In this document: positions 1,930 through 61,799 of the stretch, piece by piece
Layout: every line of letters begins with the position of its first letter
Position numbering within the stretch: the stretch's first letter is position 1
Assembly (NCBI GenBank): GCA_045643125.1
Contig: JAZUKE010000085.1
Coordinates: 8,992 to 72,991, forward strand
From: Eubacteriales bacterium
GTDB taxonomy: Bacteria; Bacillota; Clostridia; Oscillospirales; CAG-382
Direction: 5' to 3'
DNA length: 64,000 nt
Made by a program: the position numbers and the translations under genes
Notes under the pieces: model-generated
Told to the model about the DNA's origin: nothing
Seen by the model: the letters and a program-made list of their open reading frames with translations, nothing else
The model's database searches: none

Positions 1930-2192
1930 GTTTTCAGTTTTCAGTCTTCAGTTTTCAGTAGGGGACGGCGTCCTCGACGTCCCGATTACTAATTCACGAA
2001 ACAAATTTCAAATTATCGAAATTATTTCACGCTTTCGCGTGAAATAATCACCTCAATGTGCGAAGCACATATCATATCGCGCAAGCGATATATCATACGC
2101 CTCAAGGCGTATATCATATTGCCATAAGGCAATATATCATTTCGCGTAAGCGATAAGGGCGTATATCATATTGCCATAAGGCAATATATCAT
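1930..2192. repeat. Composite intergenic repeat: (GTTTTCA)x4 array plus a train of short hairpins separated by ATATCAT
   Basis: The heptamer array is at 1930-1957. It is followed by the hairpins TTATTTCACGC/GCGTGAAATAA, TGTGC-gaa-GCACA, ATATCGC-gcaa-GCGATAT, ATACGCC-tcaa-GGCGTAT and ATATTGCC-ataa-GGCAATAT (the last occurs twice). The same architecture recurs at 56550-56780 and partly at 4876-4979. Confidence 0.8.
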
Positions 2193-3990: not shown

Positions 3991-4572
3991 ATAAAACGCA
4001 TTTTAATTCTGCTGCTTGCCCTTTCCCTTGTCTTCTCGTGCGTGGCGTGCGATATAGGCAGCTTCATAGAAGTCGTCACGTCGGAGCCGGAGGACGTATC
4101 GTTTGAGCCGGTCTCGATCATAACCTATGTATCGCTTCCCGAAGAATCAAGCATTTACGAGGAATCAAGTCTTCCCGAAGAATCGGAGGAAGAGCCGGGG
4201 ATCACCGTTGACAAAGACGGAGCTTATTACGATCTTGAACACGTCGTCGCGTATCTTGCGACATACAAAAAACTGCCGTCGAACTACATCACCAAAGCCG
4301 AAGCACAGAAGCTCGGATGGTCGGGCGGCACAGTGGAAAGATACAAAAACGGTGCCGCGATCGGCGGAGACTATTACGGCAACTACGAAAAACGGCTTCC
4401 CACAACGAAAGGCATCAAATACACTGAATGTGACCTCGATACGAACGGCAGCAAGCCGAGAGGCGAAAAGCGGCTCATCTACTCGACGGATTGGCATTTT
4501 TATTACACCGAGGATCATTACGAAACGTTCCGTGAAGTCGTATACGAGAACGGAAAGGTGGTATTCAAATGA
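3991..4572 (+). CDS. Secreted guanyl-specific ribonuclease, barnase family
   Basis: The C-terminal 110 aa align by eye with barnase (ITKAEAQKLGWSGG..., GGDYYGNYEKRLP, RLIYSTDWHFYYTEDHYETF). The in-frame upstream sequence encodes a signal peptide (KRILILLLALSLVFSCVAC) preceded by AAGGAGA. The start codon is uncertain: ATA at 3991, whereas the track calls GTG at 4042. Confidence 0.85.
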   Translation: MKRILILLLALSLVFSCVACDIGSFIEVVTSEPEDVSFEPVSIITYVSLPEESSIYEESSLPEESEEEPGITVDKDGAYYDLEHVVAYLATYKKLPSNYITKAEAQKLGWSGGTVERYKNGAAIGGDYYGNYEKRLPTTKGIKYTECDLDTNGSKPRGEKRLIYSTDWHFYYTEDHYETFREVVYENGKVVFK

Positions 4573-4835
4573 AAAATATACTGCTCGATTTTTCGCTCGT
4601 TTTCAATAAAGCCTCCGCCCACTCCTACGTCGCGTCCAAGCTCTCGTTTCCCCGTTGGTACGGCAGGAATTTCGACGCGCTGAACGACTGTCTCTGGGAG
4701 ATCGGCGAATGTACGCTTGTGCTGCGAAACGTCGAAAAGCTGAACGAGATCGACAAAACTTTCCTTGAAGTTTTCAAGCGCAACGAAAAAGAAAATAAAA
4801 ATCTGTCCCTTGTCATACTCGACGAAGGACAGTGA
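4569..4835 (+). CDS. Barstar (barnase inhibitor)
   Basis: 88 aa. WYGRNFDALNDCLWE matches the barstar YYGENLDALWDCLTG helix. The start overlaps the RNase stop (ATGA). Confidence 0.9.
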   Translation: MKNILLDFSLVFNKASAHSYVASKLSFPRWYGRNFDALNDCLWEIGECTLVLRNVEKLNEIDKTFLEVFKRNEKENKNLSLVILDEGQ

Positions 4836-4875: not shown

Positions 4876-4979
4876 GTTTTCGGTTTTCAGTTTTCAGTTT
4901 TCAGTTTTCACCTGCAAATTATTTCACGGCTTGCCGTGAAAATAATTACCTTAATTTGTCATTTGCAATTTGTCATTTG
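4876..4979. repeat. Truncated copy of the heptamer/hairpin repeat family
   Basis: GTTTTCG plus (GTTTTCA)x4 at 4876-4910, then the hairpin ATTATTTCACGG-cttg-CCGTGAAAATAAT, then the CCTTAATTTGTC ATTTGCA ATTTGTC ATTTGTC heptamers. Confidence 0.75.
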
Positions 4980-5675
4980 TCATTCGTTTGTCCGCTTTTT
5001 CTTTGCAAATATTATTCTCACCGAGTCGTAAAGGGGTTCGTGCGTTATCTTATCCGCGTCGAAGCGCATCGTGCGGAACGCAAACTGCATAACCGGCCCC
5101 GCGCCGAACGCGCAGACGAGCGTGCCGACACCGACTTTGCCGCCGAGCAGCCATCCGATGAACGTGGCAAGGCTGAGCAGTCCTATGCTGATAACGCCTA
5201 TGGGAATCTTTGAAAGTCTCTTTTTAAGCCCGACAAGCAGCGTGTCACGCGGGCCGCAGCCGAGAGCGGCATTCATATAGAAATACTGCGTGTAGCCGAG
5301 TATGAACAACCCTACGACGAGCATAACGATACTTCCCGCCATATTCTTCGGCACCGGGACGACGTTCAGCCACTCGAAGAAATCCACCGCTTTGCCGACG
5401 GTCACCGCGTCGATGAACATAGCGATGCCGATGGGCTCGCGCATAATCACGTCGATAAGAACTATCAGCGCCGAAACGGCTATCGAAGCGTTGCCGTAGA
5501 CGATGCCGAGCGTCTTGGAAAGACCGAGGTTGAATACGTCCCACGGAGCGGCGCCGACCGACGCGTGTATCGTGAGGTAAACGCCGAAGCCGTTGACGAA
5601 AAGCGAAATGAACGCTATGCACATATTCGTGAAGATACCCCGACGGGTATCGTTTTTTATTGCTTTTATTCTCAT
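4980..5675 (-). CDS. YczE/YitT-like integral membrane protein
   Basis: About 231 aa and polytopic (GFGVYLTIHASVGAAPWDVFNLGLS, GCGPRDTLLVGL). I take the start at the second Met (MRIKAIK). Confidence 0.7.
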   Translation of the reverse strand: MRIKAIKNDTRRGIFTNMCIAFISLFVNGFGVYLTIHASVGAAPWDVFNLGLSKTLGIVYGNASIAVSALIVLIDVIMREPIGIAMFIDAVTVGKAVDFFEWLNVVPVPKNMAGSIVMLVVGLFILGYTQYFYMNAALGCGPRDTLLVGLKKRLSKIPIGVISIGLLSLATFIGWLLGGKVGVGTLVCAFGAGPVMQFAFRTMRFDADKITHEPLYDSVRIIFAKKKRTNE

Positions 5676-5836
5676 AAACAAACCGTCCGACAATATTCTT
5701 ACAACGATTATTTGTAGCAGATGCGAACGGTTTTGTCAATAGAAAAAGAAAGGAAAAATATAATAAAAATATCTTGATTTTCTTTTTTCGGTGTGATATA
5801 ACACTCTCGAAAATCCAATATAAAGAAGGAATATTA

Positions 5837-6919
5837 ATGAGCAGAGTGCTTGTACCCGATTATTTTGAGCGGTTCGTATGCAAATGCGGCATCTGCCGTC
5901 ACCCGTGCTGCGACGGCTGGGGCATCAACGTGAGCAAAGCGGAATATTTTTCGCTCATCGGTCTTGACTGCACCGAAAAACTGCGTCACCGCATAGACGA
6001 CGCCTTTGTGGTGTCGGACTTCCCCACCGATGAATCCTACGCTTCGATACAGCCGAATTTTCTTGAACAATGTCCGATGCTCGACGAAGACGGACTTTGT
6101 ATGCTTCAAAAGGAAAAGGGTGAGCATCTGCTGCCGCTTATATGCCGCGTATATCCGCGAGGCGTGAAAAAGTACGGCGAAAATCACGAGATATGTATGT
6201 CGTGCAGCTGCGAAGAGACGGTGGAACTGCTTATGCAAAGCACGAAGCCGCTGCTCCCGCACGAAACGACGGTGGATCTGCCGTTTGATGGGCTTGAAGT
6301 CTACGGCGACGAGCCGGAAAAAGACGCTCTTCGCCACAAATGCGTGTTAATAATGTCCGAGCCGGGCGAAAGCATAACGGAACGCCTTGAAAAGATCGGG
6401 TTGCTTTGCGGCGGCAATCCGCAGGAAGAAGCGGAAAGCCGAAAGCAGTCGCTTGTTTCGGTAAAGCATTTTATCGAAATACTTTGCAGACGCAGCAAGA
6501 GCATAAGAGAATACGGTGAAAAAGTGCTGTCCTTCCTCGACTGCGGCGAAGACGAGATGATGCTCCGTTTCGACGAAGCGGAAGAGCATCTTTACAAAGT
6601 GATCCCGAAGGTCGAAGCCTACGCGGGCAGGATAATCGCCAATCATCTGATATACGAGAGTTTCCCCTACGTTGACGGCTGTGAAACGCCCGATTCGGCG
6701 TTTGCCGCGTTCTGCACGGCGGTCGCCCTGCTCAAGGTGATGTGCGTCTGCGGTATGGCGGACACCGACGACATCGACGTTTTTACGGATATCCTGTCAT
6801 TTGCCAACAGATTTATCGAACATTCCGACTATTACAGAACGTGCAGCCGCCTCTCGCACCCCGAAGGGATGAAGACGTTTGCGCTTTTTAAGCCGATACT
6901 TGAAAAGAATGACAAATGA
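5837..6919 (+). CDS. FliB-family Cys-rich protein (flagellin lysine-N-methylase-like)
   Basis: The N-terminus PDYFERFVCKCGICRHPCCDGWGINV fits the CxxxCxxxCC-GW signature. I take the start at ATG 5837 (after AAGAAGGA), not at 5774. No flagellar genes are nearby. Confidence 0.55.
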   Translation: MSRVLVPDYFERFVCKCGICRHPCCDGWGINVSKAEYFSLIGLDCTEKLRHRIDDAFVVSDFPTDESYASIQPNFLEQCPMLDEDGLCMLQKEKGEHLLPLICRVYPRGVKKYGENHEICMSCSCEETVELLMQSTKPLLPHETTVDLPFDGLEVYGDEPEKDALRHKCVLIMSEPGESITERLEKIGLLCGGNPQEEAESRKQSLVSVKHFIEILCRRSKSIREYGEKVLSFLDCGEDEMMLRFDEAEEHLYKVIPKVEAYAGRIIANHLIYESFPYVDGCETPDSAFAAFCTAVALLKVMCVCGMADTDDIDVFTDILSFANRFIEHSDYYRTCSRLSHPEGMKTFALFKPILEKNDK

Positions 6920-7072
6920 CAAATTACAAATGATAAATTGCAAATAGAGATGGGATTTTTGCGCAAAAACGCCAAAATCCTTCTTAATTTATAATAATAA
7001 TTGAAAAGGATTTTCGGGTTTTTGCCCCGAAAATCCTTTCCTTAATTTGGCATTTGCAATTTGCAATTTATC
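6910..7072. repeat. Inverted heptamer arrays flanking a strong bidirectional terminator hairpin
   Basis: Left array, 6910-6944: TGACAAA TGACAAA TTACAAA TGATAAA TTGCAAA. Central hairpin, 7003-7040: GAAAAGGATTTTCGGG-tttttgc-CCCGAAAATCCTTTC. Right array in inverted orientation, 7045-7072: ATTTGGC ATTTGCA ATTTGCA ATTTATC. Confidence 0.8.
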
Positions 7073-41982: not shown

Positions 41983-42109
41983 ATCGGTTTCATCCTTTCG
42001 GCGTAAAATTCCGGGCAATGTATGTTTGCTTTCAAAAACGTTCGCTTATTTCTTCTGCTTTTTCTCCCGTTTTCCGTTTTCCATTTCAACGATTTCCGTT
42101 TTTGAAACG

Positions 42110-42367
42110 GCTCTTCCGCCTGAAAAACTCCTTTAAGTCGAGCGGACGCGAGTCCTCGCGCCGACCAAGCGAGCGTAACGGAATGAAGCGAAGCGCGATA
42201 AGCGCGAGAAAACCACTTACAAAACGCAGTTTTGCAAGTCCATTCTAATAAATCCTGTTTTTCGGGCAGCTCTGCCGCCTGAAAAACTCCTTCAAGACGA
42301 GCGGACGCGAGTCCTCGCGCCGACCAAGCAAGCGGAATGGAATGGAGCGAAGCGCGATAAGCGCGAG
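42110..42367. repeat. Two 99-nt direct repeats (about 90% identity, 159-bp period) inside the 476-bp gap after the pilin-like gene
   Basis: Copy 1 at 42110-42208 and copy 2 at 42269-42367. Each contains the GCGAG-ga-CTCGC and GCGCGATAAGCGCG palindromes. Confidence 0.85.
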
Positions 42368-42494
42368 GAAATCCCAAATCAAGGACTGCGGAACGCTGTC
42401 CTTGATTTGTGTGAAATAAAGCCCATCAGCCCTCACTGAAAACGGATAAATATCCATCGTCATAAGGGCTGACGGAGTTATTGCTTTTTTGTTA

Positions 42495-56549: not shown

Positions 56550-56780
56550 GTTTTCAGTTTTCAGTTTTCAGTTTTCAGAAGAATGGAAAAATGACAGCTT
56601 TTTGCGGCTGTCATTTTCTTTATATTCTTTCCAATCGAAGAAATTATTTTCACGCTTCCGCGTGAAAATAATCACCTCAATGTTGCGAAGCAACATATCA
56701 TATCGCAGCGCGATATATCATACGCCGCAGGCGTATATCATATTGCCTTAAGGCAATATATCATTTCGCGTCAGCGATAA
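56550..56780. repeat. Second full copy of the heptamer/hairpin-train repeat (includes the antiporter terminator)
   Basis: (GTTTTCA)x4 at 56550-56577. Terminator AAAATGACAGC-(8 nt)-GCTGTCATTTT at 56587-56617. The same ordered hairpins as at 1990-2192 follow. Confidence 0.85.
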
Positions 56781-57872
56781 TCAGTCCGCGAGCGGATATT
56801 TGTCAGGTCTCATCGTATGGCGAAGGAGATGCACCGCATCGTCGGTATCGGTATTGCCGTCGCCGTTCATATCGCCGCTTTGCTCCAAAGGGTACCGCAG
56901 CGGACGCATCGTGTGGCGGAGAAGGTACGCCGCATCGGACGCATTGACGGCTCTGTCGCCGTTGACGTCGCCGCGGATATACAGACGCCTCATATAGGTC
57001 ATCGAAGCGTACCCCTCGATACCGTTATATTCGACGTGCGCCCACTTCCCGTTTGCCTTCGTCACCTTGAAGATCCCGTCCGCGGGAATACTGCCGAGAG
57101 CGGCAAAAGACGTCCCGTGCCCCGAACGTATCGTCAGCGTGCCGGACACGTTGTCGGTGGTGTAAACTCCGGCGTATTTCTCCACACAGCCGCATTTTTC
57201 GCGGTCTGCGTAAGCCGAAATATGTACCGGTGAGTTTCTGACGTCGGAGTCGTTGAAATATATCTTGTGCTTGCGGATGTAATTGTGTCCGTAGGTGCCG
57301 TATTCCCAGTTGGAGTCAAGCACGTTCACGCCGTCCGAATCCACCGAAATTACTATCGCCGAATGGTTGAGCGACGATTTGTAAGCGGTCGTGTCCCACC
57401 TGAGGTTGTCCCCGATATGGGCGTGATCCTTCATTTCCTCATAGTTGAATCTGTACGTCCCGACGGGCTCAAGGGCAACGACGGAATCGACGCTTTCCGC
57501 GAAAATGTACCACGACGCAAACTCCGCGAAAGCGTAGCACGACCATCCGTCGGAATCGAATCCGCTTGTGTGGGGCGGATATTGACGGATATCCGTTTCG
57601 CCGAATTCTTCGATGAACCACGACGATCTGATTACCTTTGAAAGACGGCACTTTTCGCATACGCTGTTCCCGCAGTCGGAGCAGTCGGTGGTGAAGCGTT
57701 TGCCGCGCAGTTTAGAAAACAGCTCGTCGATACGTTCAAGGATCTCGTCGTCGGTGTAAACGTGCGTCTCCTGCGCGTCGTTTTTTGCTTTTTCTTTCGC
57801 CGCCTGCGGCATCAGCACGAAAAGCGGCAGCAGAGAGAGCGCAAGAAAGAACGGCAGTATTTTCTTTTTCAT
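56781..57872 (-). CDS. Secreted dockerin-bearing protein with a papain-like (CHAP/NlpC-type) domain and an SH3b domain
   Basis: Signal peptide. Cys/His candidates (DGWSCYAFAEF, LNHSAIVISV). SH3b-like GTLTIRSGHGTSFAALGSIP...WAHVEYNGIEGYA. Duplicated dockerin F-hand segments (DVNGDRAVNASDAAYLLRH and DMNGDGNTDTDDAVHLLRH). Confidence 0.7.
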   Translation of the reverse strand: MKKKILPFFLALSLLPLFVLMPQAAKEKAKNDAQETHVYTDDEILERIDELFSKLRGKRFTTDCSDCGNSVCEKCRLSKVIRSSWFIEEFGETDIRQYPPHTSGFDSDGWSCYAFAEFASWYIFAESVDSVVALEPVGTYRFNYEEMKDHAHIGDNLRWDTTAYKSSLNHSAIVISVDSDGVNVLDSNWEYGTYGHNYIRKHKIYFNDSDVRNSPVHISAYADREKCGCVEKYAGVYTTDNVSGTLTIRSGHGTSFAALGSIPADGIFKVTKANGKWAHVEYNGIEGYASMTYMRRLYIRGDVNGDRAVNASDAAYLLRHTMRPLRYPLEQSGDMNGDGNTDTDDAVHLLRHTMRPDKYPLAD

Positions 57873-59159: not shown

Positions 59160-59328
59160 AATGAAGTCGCCCTTGCGGGCTAATGAAGGAATGAAGACGC
59201 TTCGCTAATGAAGAAATGAAATGAGAGACCGGGAGAAACGCGGGCGACTTCGCTTCATGCGAACGAAGTGAGCGCTTCATAGAAACCGTAAGGTTTCTGC
59301 TTCATGTTTGCGAAGCAAACGCTTCATT
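59151..59328. repeat. Direct repeat DR1 (GCTTCAT-spaced hairpin train)
   Basis: 178 nt, more than 90% identical by eye to 61515-61694. It begins inside the right arm of the tRNA terminator. Confidence 0.9.
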
Positions 59329-59339
59329 CCCTTTTTCCC

Positions 59340-59368
59340 TTGAAATCCTGCAAAAAATATGCTATACT
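59340..59368 (+). promoter_or_regulatory. Sigma-A-type promoter candidate for the LRR gene
   Basis: TTGAAA (59340-59345), 17 nt, TATACT (59363-59368). Confidence 0.5.
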
Positions 59369-61514: not shown

Positions 61515-61694
61515 GTTTGGTAGAATGAAGTCGCCCCTATACGGGGCTAATGAAGAATGAAGACGCTTCGCTAATGAAGAAATGAAATGAGAGAACTGGA
61601 GAAACGCGGGCGGCTTCGCTTCATGCGAACGAAGTGAGCGCTTCATAGAAACCGTAAGGTTTCTGCTTCATGTTTGCGAAGCAAACGCTTCATT
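61515..61694. repeat. Direct repeat DR2
   Basis: 180 nt, the partner of DR1. The differences include paired stem changes (GCCC-ttgc-GGGC versus GCCCC-tatac-GGGGC). Confidence 0.9.
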
Positions 61695-61799
61695 TCGCCC
61701 CGAAAAAACTTAAAAAACCGCAAAAAAAAATGCAGCAAAGAATGTAATATTTTCCTTCCTCACGGGGTATTGAAAGCGAAAAGGAAAGGGGCAGAAAAT

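Follow-up and report, generated by a model that had tools for sequence, protein, structure and literature searches.

What kind of element recurs at the 3' ends of genes in this 64,000-nucleotide stretch of a Eubacteriales bacterium genome (contig JAZUKE010000085.1, positions 8,992 to 72,991; in the following, the window)? The original prediction had described a composite repeat family without coding capacity, dispersed over the 3' ends of genes, in which arrays of the heptamer GTTTTCA are combined with trains of short hairpins that are separated by a constant 7-nt linker, and had not recognized it as a named family. The description was largely borne out, whereas the claim of novelty was overturned for the hairpin trains, since this module is the Gut-1 RNA motif of Rfam (RF01706), which the window matches at gathering score. 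We consider it about an even chance that the loci belong to a lineage-specific mosaic family of non-coding extragenic repeats in gut Oscillospirales-type Clostridia, a family that would act through single-stranded DNA (ssDNA) and represent a functional analogue of repetitive extragenic palindromic (REP) sequences and bacterial interspersed mosaic elements (BIMEs).

The Rfam scan of the window retrieved Gut-1 at 56690-56766 on the minus strand with 58.2 bits (gathering score 50), and two further matches below this threshold (2045-2119, minus strand, 41.7 bits; 2134-2194, 19.3 bits). Scores of 51-60 bits were obtained at related loci of metagenome-assembled genomes (MAGs; L016, L112, L008, L002 and L072). 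Gut-1 was described from human-gut environmental sequence only, with 43 representatives and no sequenced organism, and was rated a certain RNA on the basis of covariation and not cis-regulatory, with no function given (Weinberg et al. 2010, Genome Biol 11:R31, PMC2864571). In the seed alignment, which we examined together with its flanks, the linkers between the hairpins are GUGAAAU or GUGAUAU, and the seed contigs place the motif after terminators and between convergent stop codons. The flanks already show inverted trains and heptamer arrays, namely a second, inverted train with AUAUCAC linkers in contig BAAZ01000095 and, in contig BAAY01013587, four to five tandem AUUUUCA heptamers that lie about 200 nt downstream. 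From this we conclude that the composite is an undescribed extension of a known motif and not a new family. The subfamily with GCTTCAT linkers, the heptamer arrays and a long palindrome that accompanies the trains lie outside every Rfam model.

The distribution of the trains was addressed with a census of one genome per GTDB species, in which three ATATCAT heptamers located 11-17 nt apart were required. At least 120 stretches matched this pattern, and all train counts given here (85 loci, 75 clusters, 240 hairpins, 189 of them unique) rest on the matches listed in that census. Real hairpin trains are present at at least 85 loci, nearly all of them in gut or rumen Clostridia MAGs, and the carriers include Acutalibacteraceae, Oscillospiraceae, Faecousia and "Eubacteriales bacterium", with dozens of species-level MAGs. 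A total of 240 segments between ATATCAT heptamers form perfect hairpins with a stem of 4 bp or more, among which 106 stem sequences are distinct. The units are perfect hairpins of 13-17 nt, which recur with a period of 18-26 bp and without helical phasing; this variable period argues against binding to duplex DNA in helical phase. A de novo search for hairpin series revealed the further linker classes ATGAAAT, ATGGAAT, ATGTAAT and AATGAAG, with the general form ATGNWAT.

The hairpins are strongly asymmetric with respect to the strand. Read on the ATATCAT strand, the most frequent loops are GAA (52), GCA (22), AAA (20), GTCA (13) and GCAA (11), whereas their reverse complements are nearly absent from this strand (TTC 2, TGC 0). 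Among the 189 unique hairpins, GNA/GNNA loops outnumber TNC/TNNC loops 97 to 3 (p = 3e-25), and the same bias is apparent if it is counted by locus (69 loci versus 2). A C-G pair closes 208 of the 240 hairpins and 163 of the 189 unique ones, and single stem mismatches on the ATATCAT strand are mostly G:T (9, versus one A:C). The five Gut-1 seed sequences that were read show the same loop and strand pattern as the trains in the MAGs. Because of this asymmetry of loops, closing pairs and mismatches, the folded and selected strand appears to be that of ATATCAT, opposite to the orientation used by Rfam. Hairpins in which a C-G pair closes a GNA or GNNA loop, written c(GNA)g and c(GNNA)g, such as d(GCGNAGC) and d(GCGNNAGC), are extraordinarily stable DNA mini-hairpins; their stability depends on this closing pair, and it is much lower in the corresponding RNA (melting temperature 39 °C for r(GCGAAAGC) versus 76 °C for d(GCGAAGC)) (PMC13037366, PMC3201870). 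GNYA loops are at least as frequent as GNRA loops among the unique hairpins (28 versus 18).

In the window, the elements are composed as follows, with loci 1 to 5 numbered along the sequence.
Locus 1, 1930-1957, plus strand: heptamer array of four GTTTTCA, one of them GTCTTCA.
Locus 1, 1959-1983, plus strand: GC-rich hairpin TAGGGGACGGCGTCCTCGACGTCCC, which is a dispersed module in its own right.
Locus 1, 2019-2048, no strand: long palindrome AAATTATTTCACGC-TTT-GCGTGAAATAAT.
Locus 1, 2049-2192, plus strand: CACCTCAATG, then a train of seven hairpins with ATATCAT linkers.
Locus 2, 4876-4910, plus strand: heptamer array of five GTTTTCR, starting from the T-tract in the terminator of the barstar gene.
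Locus 2, 4916-4990, plus strand: palindrome variant AAATTATTTCACGG-CTTG-CCGTGAAAATAAT (4916-4946), TACCTTAATT and tandem ATTTGTC/ATTTGCA heptamers, with no hairpin train.
Additional related locus, 6908-7069, no strand: (AAATGAC/AAATTAC)n array, two terminator-like hairpins, CCTTAATTTG and an inverted (GCATTTG/GCAATTT)n array.
Locus 3, 56550-56577, plus strand: heptamer array of four GTTTTCA, directly after the TAA stop of a Na/H exchanger gene.
Locus 3, 56587-56618, no strand: bidirectional intrinsic terminator between heptamer array and palindrome.
Locus 3, 56641-56672, no strand: long palindrome AAATTATTTTCACGC-TTCC-GCGTGAAAATAAT.
Locus 3, 56673-56766, plus strand: CACCTCAATG and a train of five hairpins with ATATCAT linkers, in the hairpin order of locus 1.
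Locus 4, 59160-59328, plus strand: inverted-pair element directly after the terminator of a tRNA-Ala gene, with an AATGAAG-linked half (59160-59220) and a GCTTCAT-linked hairpin half (59252-59328).
Locus 5, 61524-61694, plus strand: second copy of the locus 4 element in direct orientation, downstream of a gene for a BspA-like leucine-rich repeat protein.

All five loci that had been listed by the original prediction are thus present, and the locus at 6908-7069 had been overlooked; it shares 82% identity with 4931-4981, the right half of locus 2, and is located between two long open reading frames (ORFs) that converge there and match no Pfam family. The order of heptamer array, palindrome and CACCTCAATG or, in its place at locus 2, TACCTTAATT was confirmed for loci 1 to 3 by reading the sequence, with palindrome arms of 12-13 bp and a variable distance from the heptamer array. 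The full order including the train is shared by loci 1 and 3 only, whereas locus 2 harbors an ATTTGTC/ATTTGCA array and no ATATCAT train. GTTTTCA dimers occur 10 times in the window (0.05 expected) and ATATCAT occurs 23 times (4.9 expected), numbers that were reached in none of 100 shuffles each, and the (GTTTTCA)n arrays of loci 1 to 3 were also called by Tandem Repeats Finder. The ATATCAT-spaced hairpins involve six heptamers at 2056-2192 and four at 56681-56766, and folding of the trains as single strands yielded hairpins of 7-8 bp with 3-nt linkers (z = -5 to -8). The train of locus 1 contains a 52-nt duplication. Loci 1 and 3 have five hairpins in common, in the same order and with stems that are identical except for one symmetric 1-bp extension, and nevertheless all of their loops differ. 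Within each arm of the locus 1 palindrome we found the canonical Gut-1 linker ATTTCAC/GTGAAAT.

BLAST aligned loci 4 and 5 over about 180 bp with about 94% identity, and a 140-nt core is 98% identical; the borders are sharp, and no similarity extends beyond them. Terminal inverted repeats, which had been denied for the repeat as a whole, are present in these GCTTCAT elements at the level of the heptamer (AATGAAG...CTTCATT), and the whole element can fold into one long hairpin. The whole-window Rfam scan gave no match at gathering score for loci 2, 4 and 5, and a permissive scan of locus 4 gave no match at E ≤ 1. Elsewhere in the window, at 42080-42371, a 133-nt non-coding unit is present in two tandem copies (85% identical, 159 bp apart), with a short CCGTTTT heptamer array just upstream (42065-42086); the unit contains GGAATGAAGCGAAGCGCG, i.e. 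an AATGAAG heptamer and a GCGAAGC mini-hairpin, and may be another relative of the GCTTCAT/AATGAAG subfamily.

How do the elements relate to their neighboring genes? Four of the regions had been placed between convergent genes, which applies to three at most. Locus 4 has the plus-strand tRNA-Ala gene on one side and a plus-strand gene on the other, and is hence not convergent. At locus 5, the minus-strand ORF on the right (61710-63278, 522 aa) appears spurious: no homologue, not even the ORF itself, was found at E ≤ 1e-60, and a plus-strand frame is open from 61674 to the window end at 64000, so that the minus-strand ORF is probably a shadow ORF and the plus-strand frame (61797-64000) is probably the real gene. 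The minus-strand ORF flanking locus 2 (4980-5693) is a putative gene with no Pfam match. On the other side of locus 2, directly upstream, we noted a gene pair for a barnase-like ribonuclease (PF00545) and barstar (PF01337) at 4042-4835. Directly upstream of locus 1, between tsaD and the gene for a DUF6062 protein, the window harbors a cluster of co-oriented DnaA boxes (1772-1875; three perfect TGTGGATAA and near-matches), which is conserved in all relatives, whether they carry the repeat or not; no dnaA gene is adjacent, and the window shows no switch in GC skew.

Among the 75 listed clusters, 30 are located within 400 bp downstream of the 3' end of a tRNA gene and none on the 5' side; at least a dozen tRNA identities are flanked in this way, with locus 4 of the window as one such case. 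The elements that were inspected start 0-10 nt past the T-tracts of terminators and stop before the next promoter. Two composite arrangements recur, which we refer to as A-type (terminator, ATGATAT train, ATATCAT train) and B-type (CCAAGCC hairpin, ATATCAT train, ATGATAT train, CCAAGCC hairpin). In one MAG (L083:103-539), three trains with a spacing of 193 bp lie beside a tRNA-Leu gene and form a higher-order tandem repeat of a train-containing unit. Relative to the flanking ORFs, train orientations were (-,-) 18, (+,+) 14, (+,-) 11 and (-,+) 4, so that these crude gene calls revealed no usable orientation bias for the listed trains.

These positions bear on the view underlying the Rfam entry, according to which the trains are a structured RNA, the Gut-1 small RNA (sRNA), that is transcribed alone or as a 3' trailer of tRNAs or mRNAs and that would either present its single-stranded AUGAUAU/GUGAAAU linkers to an RNA-binding protein, as a sponge or platform, or block 3' exonucleases. 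We regard this as unlikely, even though the Rfam matches reach gathering score and Weinberg et al. rated the motif a certain RNA on covariation, which would equally be expected of DNA hairpins. Read in the orientation of Rfam, the hairpins carry c(UNC)g or c(UNNC)g loops, which are not the stable RNA classes UNCG or GNRA, and the non-Watson-Crick stem positions would be A:C and not G:U. Moreover, the elements start directly past strong terminators and finish before the next promoter, their orientation does not correlate with the direction of the flanking genes, and the polarity of B-type elements behind tRNA genes is opposite to that of A-type elements.

Several observations nevertheless weigh against an element that acts as ssDNA. 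In A-type elements of several MAGs, the Gut-1 match has the same orientation as the tRNA immediately upstream. At loci 1 and 3 of the window, the trains lie between a minus-strand stop codon (of the DUF6062 gene, 2 nt from the train end, and of an SH3/dockerin gene, 15 nt from the train end, respectively) and the sole usable terminator; because these genes reach the terminator only past the train, the two trains are probably transcribed in the Rfam orientation, and RNA-level roles may exist. Nearest-neighbor DNA folding gave near-equal energies for both strands, and the loop bias could partly result from shared descent or from a mutational bias of palindromes. Finally, a tblastn search for an IS200/RAYT-like gene (RAYT, REP-associated tyrosine transposase) gave no match in the window and about 330 fetched loci, a weak test with about 8 kb per genome and an approximate IS200 TnpA query.

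In order to follow the elements over short time-scales, orthologous loci of related strains and sister species were recovered via the genes for the DUF6062 protein and an M42 peptidase. At locus 1, a near-identical strain (L243) has kept the DnaA boxes and the heptamer array, but has one hairpin unit instead of six and lacks the GC-rich hairpin, the palindrome and CACCTCAATG, whereas the sister species (loci L242 and L245-L247) has a plain terminator hairpin only and no heptamer array. At locus 2, the heptamer array is absent from strain L243 and synteny ends directly past the terminator stem. At locus 3, strain L248 carries an insert of about 125 bp within the heptamer array, resulting in (GTTTTCA)4, insert, (GTTTTCA)2; this insert contains the GC-rich hairpin module of window locus 1, which is also found in the 3' spacer of the Na/H exchanger gene in sister species L249, and another AT-rich palindrome. 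In the same strain (98% identical; L248:5029-11312), about 5.9 kb with two additional cohesin/dockerin/Flg_new genes separate the SH3/dockerin gene from the Na/H exchanger gene; at this junction, the window has the repeat alone (56580-56790), and the locus 3 repeat therefore marks a strain-level indel boundary. At locus 4, the element is present in L248 with entirely different stems in two of three hairpins and unchanged GCTTCAT linkers, whereas L249 has the tRNA-Ala gene and its terminator without the element. Since contigs of related strains end at these elements, the repeat probably breaks MAG assemblies.

From these comparisons it is clear that modules are gained, lost and shuffled on the time-scale of strains, which is in line with a mosaic repeat that recombines and rules out that the copies arose by local duplication alone. 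A recent segmental duplication, which the original prediction had named as a possible way to refute a repeat family, is likewise ruled out by the fact that similarity ends at the element borders and that the same architecture is found in dozens of species-level genomes. Such a turnover could also be the passive by-product of slippage-prone heptamers that are seeded by terminator T-tracts (TTTTTCA), with quasi-palindromes kept perfect by intrastrand templated repair, neutral in non-transcribed spacers and without any function or trans-acting factor. In line with this, the sites are spacers after terminators, the number of units is polymorphic between strains, and the array of locus 2 is in phase with the terminator T-tract, where the strain without the array has only TTCAG. 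We nevertheless consider this explanation quite doubtful. Many genera and 189 different hairpins have the ATGNWAT linker class, the C-G closing pair and the G..A loops in common, which is hard to achieve without selection or an enzyme with specificity, and a by-product is also at odds with the sharp-bordered copies of about 180 bp at unrelated sites and with the apparent, very large excess of clusters behind tRNA genes (30 of 75).

The sole recurring neighbor family of the trains is PF05635. Among the listed clusters, 13 are located 40-125 bp upstream of a gene for a TIGR02436/PF05635 four-helix-bundle protein, with one of them (L104) at about 325 bp (L003, L008, L012, L031, L036, L040, L041, L050, L059, L063, L065, L093 and L104). 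The gene order is tRNA, terminator, trains, promoter and gene (e.g. L003:3651-3998) and is found with at least four tRNA types. The product is described as 23S rRNA intervening sequence (IVS) protein and is Avd-like; its gene, which is not present in the window, may be a mobile module or may encode a cognate binding protein, for which it is a candidate. In the promoters of L031, L093, L104 and L008, as well as in the window at 59340-59368, we noted the extended -10 consensus RTGATATAAT, whose 5' part equals the linker ATGATAT, and ATATCAT contains TATCAT, a 5/6 match to the -10 hexamer. The heptamers also resemble Fur-type 7-1-7 half-sites and CodY boxes, but none of the results lent support to any of these three resemblances.

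The genes behind the trains raise the possibility that the elements are recombination or attachment sites of small mobile cassettes behind tRNA genes, loosely similar to the attC sites of integrons. Loci 4 and 5 are direct repeats that flank one gene (BspA-like) just downstream of tRNA-Ala, the element is missing in a sister species that has both the tRNA and its terminator, and the 13 clusters upstream of the four-helix-bundle gene lie behind at least four tRNA types. However, most trains have no such cassette, no integrase or recombinase was found nearby in the window flanks or at the loci of the relatives, and no genome was found with the tRNA and a single element but without the gene, L248 being arranged as the window. 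The features of attC, a single hairpin of 60-140 bp and R''/R' cores (GTTRRRY), are also absent. We therefore consider attachment sites very unlikely.

Returning to a mosaic repeat that acts through ssDNA, each locus is a combination of a few interchangeable modules, i.e. heptamer arrays, the GC-rich hairpin, the long AT-rich palindrome and the hairpin trains. The repeat unit consists of a 7-nt linker (ATATCAT, ATTTCAC or GCTTCAT; ATGNWAT on the other strand) and a short perfect hairpin with a free stem sequence, a C-G closing pair and a GNA/GNNA loop on the linker-forward strand. Slippage or template switching at the repeated heptamers might let the arrays grow, shrink and exchange units. Because the c(GNA)g signature is strand-specific, the element would be read or selected as folded ssDNA and not as the RNA of the Rfam orientation. 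Once the hairpins are folded, the linkers would form a quasi-tandem heptamer array similar to the hairpin-free (GTTTTCA)n arrays, so that both could represent a single kind of site for one putative protein, and inverted pairs would allow the element to work whichever strand is exposed. Its role might be selfish spread or might lie in the terminator-distal spacer. A bolder proposal, which we hold tentatively and as rather less than likely, is that Gut-1, instead of being an RNA gene, supplies the hairpin trains of a REP/BIME counterpart in Firmicutes, with c(GNA)g DNA mini-hairpins phased by ATGNWAT, read by a putative ssDNA-binding or ssDNA-nicking protein (the PF05635 Avd-like protein being one candidate) and homing past tRNA terminators.

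The present data do not add a new kind of element; they provide Gut-1, which has been in Rfam since 2010, with host lineages (named gut and rumen Clostridia), a mosaic architecture, a strong link to tRNA 3' flanks and a fast turnover between strains. Also new for Gut-1 are its association with the four-helix-bundle gene and the DNA mini-hairpin signature on the opposite strand. Should the DNA reading hold, abundant uncultured gut Firmicutes would own a REP-like system with a protein partner of their own; if it is false, the repeat of the window is one more copy of a catalogued orphan motif.

How, then, does the repeat compare with known systems? Direct repeats in arrays of clustered regularly interspaced short palindromic repeats (CRISPR) are 23-50 bp long and alternate with unique spacers of similar length, usually with cas genes. 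As had been predicted, the trains are not CRISPR-like: their constant part measures 7 nt and alternates with variable palindromes of 11-17 nt, and the Pfam scan of flanking genes revealed no cas domains. Integron attC sites are single imperfect hairpins of 57-141 bp with RYYYAAC/GTTRRRY cores, cassette ORFs and intI nearby, and were rejected in view of the 13-17-nt perfect hairpins, linkers unlike the R''/R' cores and the missing integrase in the window flanks and at the relatives' loci. Tandem intrinsic terminators were rejected as well, as the train hairpins precede ATC/ATATCAT and not T-tracts, and only the last unit of locus 1 (2168-2187) was flagged besides the genuine flanking terminators. 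A phage feature was rejected, as 1 of 119 pattern matches on viral contigs is a real train (L270) and the others are AT-rich tandem repeats. A metagenome scan with the 16-mer AATAATCACCTCAATG yielded 120 chance matches, none with the composite.

Loci 4 and 5 resemble miniature inverted-repeat transposable elements (MITEs) in being non-coding, about 170-180 bp long and nearly identical, with sharp borders and inverted heptamer ends. They differ in that internal units are exchanged between strains, and a classical MITE was rejected because the inverted ends are only 7-8 bp long and the flanks show no target-site duplication (GGTGG|...|CCCTT and GGTAG|...|TCGCC); we know of no related transposase.

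REP sequences and BIMEs are found in Enterobacteria and Pseudomonads together with RAYT (Y1 HUH) transposases, which are often flanked by the repeats, and consist of a conserved imperfect palindrome of 20-40 bp and a GTAG motif. The composite shares with them that it is located outside genes, forms hairpins, is strand-specific and has a short, conserved single-stranded motif beside the hairpin; that it occurs as singles, clusters, inverted pairs and mosaics with other motifs at gene 3' ends and in convergent spacers; and that it is lineage-specific and polymorphic between strains. In contrast to the conserved palindrome with GTAG, its stems are free (106 distinct stems in 240 hairpins) and the constant part is the 7-nt linker; its units are also much shorter (13-17-nt hairpins), the host is a Firmicute and the weak search mentioned above found no RAYT.

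At the level of the single unit, the trains come close to the mini-hairpin DNA of Hirao and colleagues (PMC13037366), as they are dominated by C-G-closed GNA/GNNA hairpins, and the exact sequence GCGAAGC is contained in the opening hairpin of loci 1 and 3 as well as in the final one of loci 4 and 5. Natural mini-hairpins serve as ssDNA priming signals (G4 origin, RSF1010 ssiA) and in the promoters of the N4 virion RNA polymerase (PMC13037366, PMC3201870); these known examples are single hairpins, none of them a chromosomal array with constant linkers. With Gut-1, finally, the trains share at least three short hairpins with a constant heptamer spacer (GUGAAAU/GUGAUAU there, AUGAUAU in the window), the gut habitat and the site after terminators between convergent genes. 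The Rfam model, however, covers 77 nt with three hairpins on one strand and describes them as an sRNA of an unknown organism, whereas the train of the window is one module of a mosaic, and its loop and wobble statistics favor the strand opposite to the Rfam orientation.

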